From positions 1,051 through 65,050 of the forward strand of contig JABDGN010000001.1 of the NCBI GenBank assembly GCA_013285995.1: DNA of 64,000 bases, in the 5' to 3' direction. The notes below the pieces were generated by a model. The model was not told the DNA's origin. It was given only the letters and a program-made list of their open reading frames with translations, and did not search any database. Shown here in pieces: positions 32,179 through 36,406 of this stretch. A program made the position numbers and the translations under genes. Source of the stretch: Gammaproteobacteria bacterium. GTDB lineage: Bacteria > Pseudomonadota > Gammaproteobacteria > JABDGN01. Numbering within the stretch: position 1 is the stretch's first letter; the number at the start of each line of letters is the position of its first letter.

Positions 32179-35100
32179 TTACGCGGGTAACTTTCCTTTC
32201 AGCGTCGGCAAAGTCGGCGTCGCAACCATGAGGGGCGGGATGGTATGGGCACCATCATCTCCAAACGCTGCATACAATTGCGTGTTATTGCTGAGTAAAG
32301 CATTGGTGCTGGCATTACTCGTTGGGTAAGCCGGCATCGCCACATACTCGCTATGCCAATTGTAGCTGCCGTTCGACAAGGCGGCTATTAAGGGAGTATT
32401 CTCAACATAATTCTCTCCCCCGGCAAACAGCGTGTTGATCCCGCCGCTACTGAGGTTGGCGAAACCGTAAAGGGCACCATTCGAGGTGGGGTTGACGTAG
32501 CTATTATTCACAAACGAACCCCATATATCGTTCCAGCTTAAGTCGCCTGGCCCAAAGGATAAAGGCGCAGCCATAGCCCAGGGCGGGATAGGGATACTGC
32601 CATTGTATCCTTGTCCGCCGGCAAACAAGCTACCATTGGCGGCATACAGAGCGAAATACTCACCCCCCGGAGCATTAACAAGACCAGGAGAATTGTAGGG
32701 CGTTTGATCGTGCCAGCTAGGTGTCGGCGTCGTATTTAATAACTGCGCAACAAAAGCAACATCACAGGTATCTTTTAATTTCACCTGCGGGGCAGAGGAC
32801 GCTGTGAGGCAGCCGTTATATACTCCACCCCCTGCAAACAGGCTGCCGTTTTTGTACAATAAGGTATCGACAGAACCGTAAGGGTAGTTTAAACCTGAAT
32901 AATAATTCTGAAGCTGGGTATCGGTCCATGATGAGCTGCCAGTCTCTGAAACAACAAAAGGAGTATTAGGAATGCCGGAAGTATTTCCACCCGCGTACAC
33001 GGTAGTACCAGTATCGGCTAAGGCATTGACGTATGCGTTTGGGAAACCATTATTATCGGTGGTTAGCGTCCAACCCCCACCATTCCACTGGCTCACATAA
33101 CTGAGAATGGACGGCGACTCGCCGTCATCATTCACGCCGACAAACACCCGCGTTCCATCGGCCGATACCGATAAGGCATTGGCTTCAATGCTACTACTTT
33201 CAGTGTTGTAATCCAAGCCCACCGAATCCATATCTTGCCAGGCGGCTGTGCCGGCCGGCAATTTCATGACAAACGGGGTATCGTAATTATAAGAGCCATT
33301 AAGCTGTCCATAGTAAAAACCCGACGCATAGAAATTACCTGTTTTGTCCTGCAAGAGCTGAGAAATCCAGCCAAAAGCGGGTAAATCGGCCACGCCCACA
33401 TCTTGCCAGGTCGCACCGCTTGTGTTTGGGTTCACCAAGACTTTTAAGGCACCAATATAACTCTGACTAAAGGATTGCCCCGCTGCCATCACGGCGTCCT
33501 GATTGCCTGCCGTTACATGAACCAGGTTGTTGATGCCGGTACGGACATTCCCACCGGTTGGAAGGTTAGAGGCGGCATCACTCCAGGAACCCTCGCCACT
33601 ATCCGGGGTAACTTGCACAAAGCCTTGATAACTCTGACCACCTGAAGCGTACAAATAGCCACCCACATCCAGCAAGCTCGTCACGTAGATGTTTGTTGGA
33701 GTAGTGTTAACAAGGCCACCTGCCACTACACTCCAATCGGACTGCCCTGGCGTCCAACTGATAACGTTAGCTAAATCATTATTATAATTAAAATCCCCCG
33801 CATATAAGGTAGAATTAGCATACAACAAACTGTCCACTTCGCCGGTAGCCGGTAAGACGATGCTATCCGACACCACATCGGTCCAACTGCTAGAGGTACC
33901 CGGGACCCAGGTTTGTACAAACGGGACGACGCTATCCTCACCCCCAGCGGCATAGAATTGACCGTTGGCTGCGATTAAAGTCATAACATACGCTGTAGGG
34001 GGCAAGCCACTGGACATATCCTGCCAGGCGCTGGCCCCGGCAGACAAAGTTTTGAGCAGAGGCACATTAGTATGCCCATTAGATTGATAGCCACCCGCAT
34101 AAACGGTATTATTGGCATCAATGACGAGGCTCTGCACAGCGTTATACGGCCCTCCCTCATCGTACAAGCCTGAAGCGGCATCGGCCCAGCTCCATTGATT
34201 ACTGCCATTCGGGGTCAGTTTTTCGACAAACGGAAAATTCACTGCATCGCTATAAACAGCTCCACCCGCATACAAAACATTATTACTGTCTGCCTGCAGG
34301 CTGTAAATAATTTGATTACCCCCGGTAAGATTTAAACCCATAGTCACCACCTGGTCCCAGCTCTTTCCACCATCGGTACTGCGATACATCACTTCCACCG
34401 GATCGTAGGGATTCCCATTCTGGAGTTGCGCGCCTTTCGTTTTGGCATTCCTGAACAAAGCTTCCCTCGCGGCTTGACCTTGGGGACCTGCATGGACATT
34501 CCCCAGCGCCTGCTTCACTAAGGCTGCTTGTTGTGGTGCAGACAGCATCCGAGGACCCTGATGGCCAGCTTTGTTCAAATTATTCTGGACATCGTCCGTG
34601 TTCACAAAATACAAAACTTGTTGCCCATTCTGTTTAATCGTAAAAGCCGTAGGATAAGAATGTTGATCTTGATAATTCCAGGGCAAGCCATGGTAAGTGC
34701 TTAAACTGTCGGGCAGCGGCACAAACGCATTGCTTTGCGCGGCCATCGTGTTGAGCACAATCGCATCGCTCACGCCCTGGTCACTGCTCACTCCCACGTT
34801 AATGGGGGTCGTTTGCGTCGACCCATCAATGGAGCTCGGAGCGCTGTAAGTTAAAGTAAATACACAGTTCCCGCCGACCGCAATACTGCCACCACAGTTG
34901 TTAGTGTCGCTGACGTTAGAGTCGGGCGAGAAGGTCAAGCTTACGCCACTCAAGGGCTGGGCGCCGGTATTGTCCACCTGTACCGTCCCGGTACCAGTTT
35001 GACCCAGATACGCCAAAATGTTTTCACTCGTCCCAGCACTGTCGATAATCAATTCCGGCGCACCGATACTGCTTGTGTTCAGGGCAATCGGGGCATGGAC

Positions 35101-35523
35101 ATTGCCATTGTATAAAATCTGCGGGATGGTTACCGTAAAGGCTTGTCCCACCGTATTGGCGACAAAGCTTCCGTCTAAAGCGACGCTGCTGTTGGGTTCC
35201 AGGACATAGACGCAAGGATAACCACTGGTGGCGCTACAGGTGGTACCTGAGCCACCGCCGCTCGTCGGAGGGAAATAGGTTAAGGTGGCATTCGCCCCGG
35301 GGCTTGCTACTGGCTGCAATAAATTGAGCGCAAAAGCTTGTTTAGGGAAAGGGTTGGTCAGAGTCACCACCATCGGGTAGGGTTTCCCTGCCTGGGCTTG
35401 CGCCGGTAAATTCGTGGTGATGCTCGATTGCAGGGGGTCGGCATAGGCTACCGAACAGCCCGCTACGCTCAAGGCACACAACACTGCCAGCCGGCAGTTG
35501 AATAATTGCTTTTTCATAAACAC
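32179..35523 (-). CDS. large surface/periplasmic lipoprotein: Ig-like (choice-of-anchor-D/ASH-like) modules, Asp-box, ~13 degenerate beta-propeller blades
   Basis: Signal peptide plus lipobox ...ALSVAGC. GTVQVDNTGAQPLSGVSLTF...CGGSIAVGGNCVFTLTY is an ASH/choice-of-anchor-D-like pattern. YRSTDGGKSWD is a BNR/Asp-box. Recurrent (V/L)(Y/F)AGG and xW(S/Q/T)D motifs occur every ~50-60 aa. Confidence 0.75.
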   Translation of the reverse strand: MFMKKQLFNCRLAVLCALSVAGCSVAYADPLQSSITTNLPAQAQAGKPYPMVVTLTNPFPKQAFALNLLQPVASPGANATLTYFPPTSGGGSGTTCSATSGYPCVYVLEPNSSVALDGSFVANTVGQAFTVTIPQILYNGNVHAPIALNTSSIGAPELIIDSAGTSENILAYLGQTGTGTVQVDNTGAQPLSGVSLTFSPDSNVSDTNNCGGSIAVGGNCVFTLTYSAPSSIDGSTQTTPINVGVSSDQGVSDAIVLNTMAAQSNAFVPLPDSLSTYHGLPWNYQDQHSYPTAFTIKQNGQQVLYFVNTDDVQNNLNKAGHQGPRMLSAPQQAALVKQALGNVHAGPQGQAAREALFRNAKTKGAQLQNGNPYDPVEVMYRSTDGGKSWDQVVTMGLNLTGGNQIIYSLQADSNNVLYAGGAVYSDAVNFPFVEKLTPNGSNQWSWADAASGLYDEGGPYNAVQSLVIDANNTVYAGGYQSNGHTNVPLLKTLSAGASAWQDMSSGLPPTAYVMTLIAANGQFYAAGGEDSVVPFVQTWVPGTSSSWTDVVSDSIVLPATGEVDSLLYANSTLYAGDFNYNNDLANVISWTPGQSDWSVVAGGLVNTTPTNIYVTSLLDVGGYLYASGGQSYQGFVQVTPDSGEGSWSDAASNLPTGGNVRTGINNLVHVTAGNQDAVMAAGQSFSQSYIGALKVLVNPNTSGATWQDVGVADLPAFGWISQLLQDKTGNFYASGFYYGQLNGSYNYDTPFVMKLPAGTAAWQDMDSVGLDYNTESSSIEANALSVSADGTRVFVGVNDDGESPSILSYVSQWNGGGWTLTTDNNGFPNAYVNALADTGTTVYAGGNTSGIPNTPFVVSETGSSSWTDTQLQNYYSGLNYPYGSVDTLLYKNGSLFAGGGVYNGCLTASSAPQVKLKDTCDVAFVAQLLNTTPTPSWHDQTPYNSPGLVNAPGGEYFALYAANGSLFAGGQGYNGSIPIPPWAMAAPLSFGPGDLSWNDIWGSFVNNSYVNPTSNGALYGFANLSSGGINTLFAGGENYVENTPLIAALSNGSYNWHSEYVAMPAYPTSNASTNALLSNNTQLYAAFGDDGAHTIPPLMVATPTLPTLKGKLPA

Positions 35524-35596
35524 TCCTTATCGTTAATCGTTAAAAATTAAGTCACAGCGGTTCCCGCTATCTTTACGCGATGGGGGATTTTAAAGC

Positions 35597-36406
35597 TTAA
35601 ATCAGATAATTAACACCCAAACGGACTTCTACATCTTGCAGCGTAAGCCCTAAACCAGGAAAGGTTGTCGTCGCTGCACCCGGACCACTGTTGGCATTTT
35701 GGCGGGTACCCGTGCCGAGCGAAGCCGTGCCAAAATCACGATATAAGGCCGTTAACTTGACACTAAAACGTGAACCCACTCCATAGCCAAGACCCGGCCC
35801 GACTTCATACGCAAACTCCGTTTGGGTATGGTTATCAAAGCTGATTAGATCTTGTTCACTGCTGGTGCTAAAACCGCTGCCACGGTTCATACTGGCGCCC
35901 ACTCCAACATGCAAAAAGGGTGTGAACGAAAACCAAGTGCCCACATCCGCTTCACCTGTTACCAACAGCGCTTCACTACTGACATTGAAACCATAGGTTT
36001 GCAACTGGGAAGCTGGTACACCCTGGGTGTTTTGGTCTATCGTTCCTGAAACCGACTGCTCCGATGATCCTTCGTAAGACAAGCCAAGCCGATAGCTTGG
36101 GAAATAATGCTCAGGGACTACAAATTGATAGCCCCCTTCTACAAACCAGGCTGCACTGTCGCCGTTTGCTTTGTTGTTGATCAAGGTATCAGGAGCAATA
36201 GGGACAATTCCATTCTGCGTATACGGTAAAACAGCATTTTGCAAACTATTATCCAGTTGATGCACCCAACCGCCACCCAGGCCAACATACCAGCCTGCCA
36301 TCGGTGAGGATGAGGTAGAATCAGCAAAGAGACAGGAAGAAAAAAGCAGACCACCCGAGAGAAGCAGCACTTTGCCGCAGCTTGACACAATATTCCGATT
36401 CATCAA
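35597..36406 (-). CDS. outer-membrane beta-barrel protein (OMP_b-brl/OmpW-opacity-like)
   Basis: Signal peptide, alternating amphipathic strands with aromatic girdles, and a C-terminal ...EVRLGVNYLI strand. TTG-ATG start. Confidence 0.7.
   Translation of the reverse strand: MMNRNIVSSCGKVLLLSGGLLFSSCLFADSTSSSPMAGWYVGLGGGWVHQLDNSLQNAVLPYTQNGIVPIAPDTLINNKANGDSAAWFVEGGYQFVVPEHYFPSYRLGLSYEGSSEQSVSGTIDQNTQGVPASQLQTYGFNVSSEALLVTGEADVGTWFSFTPFLHVGVGASMNRGSGFSTSSEQDLISFDNHTQTEFAYEVGPGLGYGVGSRFSVKLTALYRDFGTASLGTGTRQNANSGPGAATTTFPGLGLTLQDVEVRLGVNYLI

Follow-up and report, generated by a model that had tools for sequence, protein, structure and literature searches.

Why should a gene for a giant exported protein stand directly behind a gene for a small outer-membrane beta-barrel, and what might the two products do together? 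The question arises at a locus of a Gammaproteobacteria bacterium (assembly GCA_013285995.1, contig JABDGN010000001.1, positions 1,051 to 65,050 of the forward strand), in a stretch of 64,000 nucleotides (nt) that we call the window. The initial annotation of this stretch had taken the two genes for a single transcription unit encoding a propeller lipoprotein and a barrel of its own, possibly a pair for display or anchoring at the surface. We find that the pair is one of about ten copies, within the genome of this uncultured, Legionella-like organism, of a two-gene module found across the Legionella group. The locus is made up of the following elements, in window positions.

35597 to 36403, minus strand: barrel gene, 268 amino acids (aa), with an AAGGAG site and then the ATG at 36403.
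35518 to 35596, minus strand: intergenic spacer of 79 nt, with an AAGGAG ribosome-binding site and a weak 7-bp hairpin that has no proper T-tail.
32179 to 35517, minus strand: gene of the large protein, 1112 aa, with an AAGGAG site and then the ATG at 35517.
32130 to 32158, minus strand: intrinsic terminator closing the operon, with an 11-bp stem, 6 G-C pairs and a T-run.

Both genes are read from the minus strand, the barrel gene upstream and that of the large exported protein downstream. They form a two-gene operon, because the gap between them is only 79 nt long, the hairpin within it is weak, and a strong terminator follows the second gene, 20 nt past its end; the single transcription unit proposed at first is thus upheld. 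Both open reading frames (ORFs) also exist as claimed. Their bounds were first listed as 35597-36406 and 32179-35523, and the refined starts shorten the products from 269 to 268 aa and from 1114 to 1112 aa, the longer form of the large protein having been read from a GTG. These are the lengths called, identically, in the protein database and in an independent assembly of the same organism.

The association of the two genes goes far beyond this locus. The source genome assembly (1.63 Mb, 60% complete) encodes 11 barrel paralogues, 10 of which are followed by a gene for a secreted protein with immunoglobulin-like (Ig) and propeller parts. These partners are encoded on the same strand, 9-173 nt downstream of the barrel, have a signal peptide and measure 716-1253 aa. 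In six sister genomes of the same order (barrel matches at E<1e-20), 14 of 19 barrel genes are paired, with 2 lying at contig ends. A sample of 400 gammaproteobacterial genomes contained 27 with the barrel, mostly small genomes; in these other families of the class (E<1e-25), full partners of 285 to >1650 aa accompany 27 of 33 barrels, plus 2 truncated ones, and the gaps are mostly 4-30 nt. With an alignment of the closer Legionella-type subfamily, we found about 45 of 79 loci paired in named Legionella genomes (jamestowniensis, bozemanae, steigerwaltii, pneumophila subsp. fraseri and others). As an alphaproteobacterial control we took equally scoring OMP_b-brl homologues from other classes of Pseudomonadota: none of the 16 loci was paired, the barrel gene being followed by another barrel gene or by a housekeeping gene, namely a cytoplasmic ORF of 390 aa that recurs. 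The barrel gene is therefore not mostly alone in homologous loci, and the two proteins are indeed the dedicated pair that had been suspected.

What do the partners have in common? After the signal peptide, they start with an Ig domain of the pattern P(L/I)(W/F)T(F/I)xP...LP....G....YxVTN......C....L....SC (hereafter, the N-domain). Its profile matches the Ig-fold domain of VesB (4lk4) with E=2.7e-5, and 9 of 38 partners match the choice-of-anchor D model NF012200, for which paralogue C42 scores 42.9 bits. A hidden Markov model (HMM) of the N-domain had no match at the control barrel loci. The remainder of the partners, the head, is varied: thaumatin (9 of 38), BNR/sortilin or lactonase propellers, the Lcl_C (DUF1566) lectin, an ice-binding-like fold and Big_2. 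Cargo C-termini are not conserved across the paralogues. What had been expected to recur as a propeller protein is thus rather a class of proteins with a common N-terminal Ig domain and interchangeable heads. The same nine thaumatin partners match NF045527, 'Dot/Icm T4SS effector LegT' (T4SS, type IV secretion system), with a best E-value of 1.7e-87 (n=38), and the large protein of the window had no match to this model in the NCBIfam search. At loci L071, L072, L083, L092, L100 and others, from Legionella and its relatives, LegT-matching proteins with a Sec signal peptide are encoded directly after a barrel gene. As far as can be read from the sequences, a Sec signal peptide and a barrel neighbour would be unexpected for an injected LegT effector. 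Elsewhere in the source genome, at C3:60073-65923 (plus strand), three consecutive secreted proteins of 1035, 470 and 438 aa are encoded with no barrel gene upstream; the first and the third match the N-domain HMM, and the 470-aa protein does not.

The similarity between barrels correlates with that between N-domains (Mantel r=0.65, 0 of 2000 permutations), and more weakly with that between the rest of the partners (r=0.39). The in-genome sister groups are also the same in barrels and partners (C1-C2, C35-C55-C29a and C18-C29b). By these comparisons, the unit of inheritance is the barrel together with the N-domain, and the heads are exchanged. These results bear on the possibility that the two genes are co-transcribed and functionally independent, the barrel being an ordinary porin or adhesin and the partner a free type II exoprotein or a LegT-like Dot/Icm effector. 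The barrel family is a generic OMP_b-brl one, many barrels of the Legionella subfamily have no partner, some N-domain proteins have no barrel, and NCBIfam names the thaumatin partners as T4SS effectors, all of which would fit such independence. Against it, adjacency has been kept over about 100 loci, in several families and with differing heads, and is absent in the control lineages; the tree of the barrels tracks the N-domain; and a Sec signal peptide is not what one expects in a Dot/Icm substrate. We consider functional independence unlikely.

The large protein of the window has the organisation of this class, with a signal peptide, two Ig-like modules, a linker with an insert and 13-14 propeller-type repeats, in this order.

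35440 to 35517, minus strand: signal peptide MKKQLFNCRLAVLCALSVAGCSVAYA, in which a lipobox-like VAG|C is followed by AYA|DP, a site for signal peptidase I.
35068 to 35439, minus strand: Ig-like module 1, the conserved N-terminal domain of the family (LP....G..Y....LTN ... C).
34732 to 35061, minus strand: Ig-like module 2 (GTVQVDNTGAQPLSGVSLTF...GGNCVFTLTY), with a sub-threshold choice_anch_D match.
34354 to 34380, minus strand: Asp-box STDGGKSWD, in a single copy.
32194 to 34311, minus strand: blade-like repeats, thirteen in number and each about 50 aa long, that carry LYAGG-like and W(S/T/Q)D motifs.

All the motifs quoted in the initial annotation are present, at the following places in the 1114-aa numbering: SVAGC at aa 19-23, GTVQVDNTGAQPLSGVSLTF at 179, GGNCVFTLTY at 217 and STDGGKSWD at 382-390. 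In an alignment with 27 partners encoded in other genomes, module 1 matches their N-terminal domain column by column, and an N-domain HMM built without any sequence of the source genome matches aa 1-186 of the large protein (iE 4.5e-7 in a 5-sequence search). Module 2 is 33% identical to the Ig module of the C29 paralogue. Its matches to NF012200 choice_anch_D (E=8e-4, 19.9 bits for a cut-off of 45), to CARDB and to the HYDIN/VesB Ig family (PF22544, E=0.74) are weak and all under the curated cut-offs, so that the earlier guess of an ASH or choice-of-anchor-D type for the Ig modules was right at a sub-threshold level. The estimate of about 13 repeat units is also confirmed: we counted 13 in aa 405-1110, each of about 45-55 aa, and an HMM of these units finds 10 in a 40%-identical paralogue and 0 in 50 shuffles of that paralogue. 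A degenerate 14th unit containing the Asp-box may precede them. A match of the large protein to Reg_prop (E=0.0018) is under the cut-off, and the AlphaFold model, built from a 3-sequence alignment, is too poor for a count of blades (predicted local distance difference test, pLDDT, 35). Thirteen to fourteen blades would be enough for two propellers, which is probably the right reading, a reasonable one rather than a result. The large protein was the only sequence recovered by a word-indexed homologue search with itself, PDB sequence searches with it gave no match, and its relatives outside the source genome are limited to weak Ig-domain matches in the sister genome G004.

Is the large protein a lipoprotein, as first annotated? 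The lipobox pattern stands: the PROSITE-type motif is satisfied by AVLCALSVAG|C, with Cys21 of the 1112-aa form, K/R residues in the n-region and Ser at +2. Its use does not follow. The lipobox occurs in 0 of the 9 other partner paralogues of the genome, all of which carry AxA-type sites, and in only 3 of 50 and 4 of 49 relatives in two sets. The AYA|DP site, 5 residues past the lipobox Cys, is aligned with the signal-peptidase-I cleavage sites of the family, and the closest paralogue reads ...LSVLAWA|DP at this point, with no Cys. Since the paralogues lack the motif, relatives rarely have it and AYA|DP aligns with the family sites, lipidation seems possible for this copy, though doubtful, and would not define the system. 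A true lipoprotein, held by the lipid at Cys21 and merely assisted by the barrel in reaching the surface, would account for the well-formed motif; given how seldom the motif recurs and where the family is cleaved, we regard such self-anchoring as very improbable.

The barrel itself carries a Sec signal peptide, cleaved at about LFA|DS, and ends with a ...GVNYLI beta-signal. The 11 paralogues mostly end with an aromatic or hydrophobic residue after Tyr (Y-x-F/I/L/V), and B_C37 ends in RNTL. The match of the barrel to PF13505 (E=6.8e-6, 26.8 bits) is just under the cut-off of 28.7; precomputed tables assign PF13505 to the protein, graded 'weak'. A PDB sequence search returned marginal NspA/Opa matches only. 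The AlphaFold model, based on the alignment of the 11 paralogues (pLDDT 80, predicted template-modelling score 0.72), has eight long strands, which are joined on the periplasmic side by turns of 3-7 residues and have long extensions on the extracellular side. With this model, Foldseek retrieves the OmpA transmembrane domain, Pla/OmpT, OprG, NspA, Ail and the Porin III model 9nh2. The protein is thus predicted to be an eight-stranded outer-membrane barrel of the OmpA/opacity type. Among 1.8 billion proteins, an HMMER search with the profile of the 11 paralogues recovered 243 cluster representatives at E<=1e-30 and 2854 at E<=1e-10; we used this full search in place of a word-indexed one with the barrel alignment, which gave only 4 proteins. 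Named relatives appear as 'outer membrane beta-barrel protein' or 'opacity protein-like surface antigen'. An organism is recorded for two relatives, namely a Legionellales bacterium and Rickettsiella. In some members of the family, among P0068, P0104 and P0135, a SPOR-like, peptidoglycan-binding domain is present at the N-terminus, and one of them has a long Ala/Lys-rich coiled region ahead of the barrel. Such a domain agrees with an N-terminus in the periplasm and with a role in anchoring.

The predicted size of the barrel is what matters most for the hypothesis that it serves as a dedicated export helper, moving its partner across or into the outer membrane in the manner of Slam, TpsB, type V systems or co-assembly with the beta-barrel assembly machinery, rather than as a passive anchor. 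The barrel comes first and the cargo has a conserved recognition domain N-terminally, an order that resembles those of two-partner secretion and of inverse autotransporters; the coupling is tight (gaps of 4-30 nt, or overlaps), and one barrel per cargo suggests specificity. However, the model has eight strands and a lumen like those of OmpA and OmpX, and profile searches detect none of POTRA, TPR, DUF560 and IAT_beta. Signal peptides are present on both proteins, and the cargo has no long disordered linker that could be threaded. An export function of the barrel seems quite unlikely to us. The same model bears on a complex in the periplasm, in which the large protein would sit on the periplasmic face of the barrel and serve envelope structure or sensing. 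Its periplasmic turns of a few residues would speak against this arrangement, as does the nature of the heads (thaumatin, Lcl-type lectin, ice-binding-like, BNR), which are classic extracellular binders; the C-terminal domain of Lcl, which is related, is active extracellularly (PMC11162425). That both proteins have only Sec signals, that SPOR-fused variants of the barrel point to contact with the wall, and that PagL genes adjoining the module in the source genome hint at envelope remodelling would be compatible with a periplasmic location, to which we nevertheless assign a decidedly low probability.

We favour instead a role of the barrel as a cognate anchor, which holds the partner on the cell surface by docking of the N-terminal Ig domain, and from the above we infer physical contact between the two proteins, surface exposure, a route of export and a ligand. 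Gene 1 would provide the eight-stranded barrel and gene 2 the Sec-exported partner. The latter would cross the inner membrane via Sec, and a general route, for which type II secretion is the most plausible candidate, would take it out of the periplasm; its Ig domain would then dock onto the extracellular extensions of the barrel, keeping the protein on the surface with its variable head displayed outside. In the window, this head would be the array of 13-14 blades, which probably form two propellers and serve as a lectin or an adhesin. Anchoring is suggested because the constant gene goes with the constant domain, and an anchor is preferred to a pore because an eight-stranded barrel would be too narrow for a folded protein of Ig modules and propellers and lacks POTRA, TPR and DUF560. 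Display outside is suggested because the heads are extracellular binding folds. The type II route is plausible because the N-domain matches the Ig domain of VesB, GspD is found above the cut-off in three sister genomes, and there is a precedent in Legionella, where Lcl is exported as a type II substrate and then goes back to the cell surface (PMC11162425).

Several observations weigh against this reading. In the Legionella subfamily, a partner is missing for roughly 40% of the barrels, and N-domain proteins occur without a barrel at C3:60073-65923 and as the second gene past the C6 pair. Co-inheritance of barrel and N-domain is equally expected from duplication of the pair as one unit. In the barrel, strands 4-7 are conserved and the loops variable, a map that is uninformative for an extracellular docking site; across the family the loops are poorly conserved and no universal docking site is visible. 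GspD is not above the cut-off in the source genome, which is only 60% complete, and the match of the thaumatin-type partners to the LegT model implies another route. Finally, the lipobox of the large protein could let it anchor itself. Taking both sides together, we judge the cognate anchor to be evenly poised between right and wrong. Tentatively, and with slightly more doubt than belief, we extend it to a display system that would be new to the literature, in which dozens of cargo-specific eight-stranded barrels would capture secreted proteins by their N-terminal Ig domain while the heads are swapped, and in which the LegT class would really consist of envelope or surface proteins. The resemblance of the barrel model to PDB 9nh2 is a separate observation, possibly generic for eight-stranded barrels. 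Porin III is an eight-stranded protein forming a C16 ring around the exit of Dot/Icm, and its sequence is not known (PMC12501162). A bolder extension, by which the barrel family would include this ring, is much less likely.

The operon is flanked by the following elements.

31963 to 32121, minus strand: relic of a DDE transposase of the IS982/IS5 type (PF13612, E=4.2e-8), directly past the terminator.
36404 to 36894, minus strand: upstream region, non-coding or degenerate, with the operon promoter and, on weak evidence, possibly the other half of the insertion sequence (IS) relic.

It is plausible that this copy splits one transposase gene, whose upstream half is only weakly transposase-like; the source genome contains no other copy of the relic, so that the IS ends are undefined. 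The flanks are shared with the sister genome G002, namely a Bat/MoxR operon and a thioesterase gene on one side and PagL and major facilitator superfamily genes on the other. Between thioesterase and PagL, G002 has unrelated cytoplasmic effector-like genes, two paralogues, one with an OTU-like C-terminus. The GC content at third codon positions of the large gene is 0.55, for 0.39±0.06 in the genome and 0.37-0.49 in the nine other partner genes. This points to a later arrival of the copy in a variable slot, or to an origin in a relative of slightly higher GC, and it fits the label of cassette given to the copy at first.

The PagL-family lipid A 3-O-deacylase gene next to the module (36895-37440, minus strand; PF09411, E=3.8e-14) has counterparts at C29:13353-13955 and C29:18753-19343 (both minus strand), and a fourth, weak match lies at C29:11226-12425. 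All three strong copies of the genome adjoin barrel-cargo modules, as does PagL at one locus of the sister genome G006. We considered PagL as a third component of the module and rejected it, since it is adjacent only in the source genome and in one sister genome and is absent from 40 class-level loci. Two further ORFs of the window are of note. A putative DUF3800-like ORF of 216 aa (29284-29934, minus strand; GC 0.355) separates two genes of the Bat operon, those of the MoxR ATPase and the DUF58 protein, which abut in G002. A Lys-rich ORF of 97 aa resembling a Phd/YefM-type antitoxin (38736-39029, minus strand) overlaps the start of the phosphopentomutase gene (37525-38739, minus strand) by 4 nt, with no obvious toxin gene beside it.

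Members of the Legionella group live inside amoebae and macrophages, and their surface decoration is poorly known. In the source genome, the module family makes up a major part of the predicted surface: it occupies about ten loci and, in an assembly of 1.6 Mb, some 10,000 codons. If the anchor reading is true, the module offers a candidate means of keeping secreted proteins on the cell, it gives a rule for predicting surface proteins (an N-domain protein downstream of such a barrel), and there is reason to re-examine LegT-type 'effectors'. A literature search, with most subscription journals outside its reach, found no paper describing a barrel-partner module, which thus appears undescribed in the literature found.

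How does the module compare with known systems? Slam, TpsB and inverse autotransporters resemble it in that an outer-membrane protein is encoded beside the surface protein that it serves, and the recognition domain of TpsA is also N-terminal. Slam is a DUF560 barrel of ~500 aa and 14 strands with TPR, TpsB a 16-strand Omp85 protein with POTRA, and intimin-type proteins are single polypeptides with a 12-strand barrel. A Slam (type XI) system was rejected, with no DUF560 or TPR match at E<=1 and a barrel of 268 aa and, in the model, 8 strands; two-partner secretion (type Vb) was rejected with no Omp85, POTRA or Haemagg_act match in either protein; and inverse autotransporters (type Ve) were rejected because there are two genes, a signal peptide for each product, no IAT_beta match and 8 predicted strands. 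The initial view that neither protein is a Slam or two-partner exporter, based on size, is thus supported by profile searches, which find no such signatures. The transmembrane domain of OmpA, Neisseria Opa and NspA, Rickettsia Adr and Yersinia Ail share with our barrel the fold class, the size and the long surface-exposed strand extensions. However, they act alone, as adhesins or structural proteins, with an identity of only about 10-14%, and we know of none that is encoded with a dedicated secreted partner. On the side of the cargo, the closest solved relative of the N-domain is the C-terminal Ig-fold domain of Vibrio cholerae VesB (4lk4), a type II substrate that is kept on the surface; there, the Ig domain is C-terminal to a protease and retention relies on GlyGly-CTERM and rhombosortase, with no partner barrel.

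Closer still are proteins of Legionella itself. LegT (lpg1328) and DUF1566/Lcl_C proteins are of the kinds found as partners of barrels of this same family, with the same N-terminal Ig domain, whereas the large protein of the window has neither a thaumatin nor an Lcl_C head, but an array of 13-14 probable blades with no relative outside its genome. Lcl, for its part, anchors by an N-terminal amphipathic helix and lacks such an Ig domain (PMC11162425). The type IX secretion system was rejected as a candidate, with no PorP_SprF or C-terminal domain (CTD) match in a profile search of the two proteins (type IX genes were not searched for) and with the cargo C-termini unconserved. Its PorP/SprF barrels nevertheless adjoin their own type IX cargo, as in SprF-SprB of Flavobacterium johnsoniae, and are thought to hold it on the surface. 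They also resemble the present module in having many small paralogous barrels, each beside its own large surface protein, and a cargo with a conserved recognition domain and a variable body. The barrel families are unrelated, the recognition domain is an N-terminal Ig here and a C-terminal CTD there, and the hosts are Gammaproteobacteria and Bacteroidota, respectively, with no type IX machinery expected in the former. The nearest system in logic is thus the PorP/SprF arrangement of type IX secretion, and the nearest in sequence are the barrel-LegT and barrel-DUF1566 pairs of Legionella.

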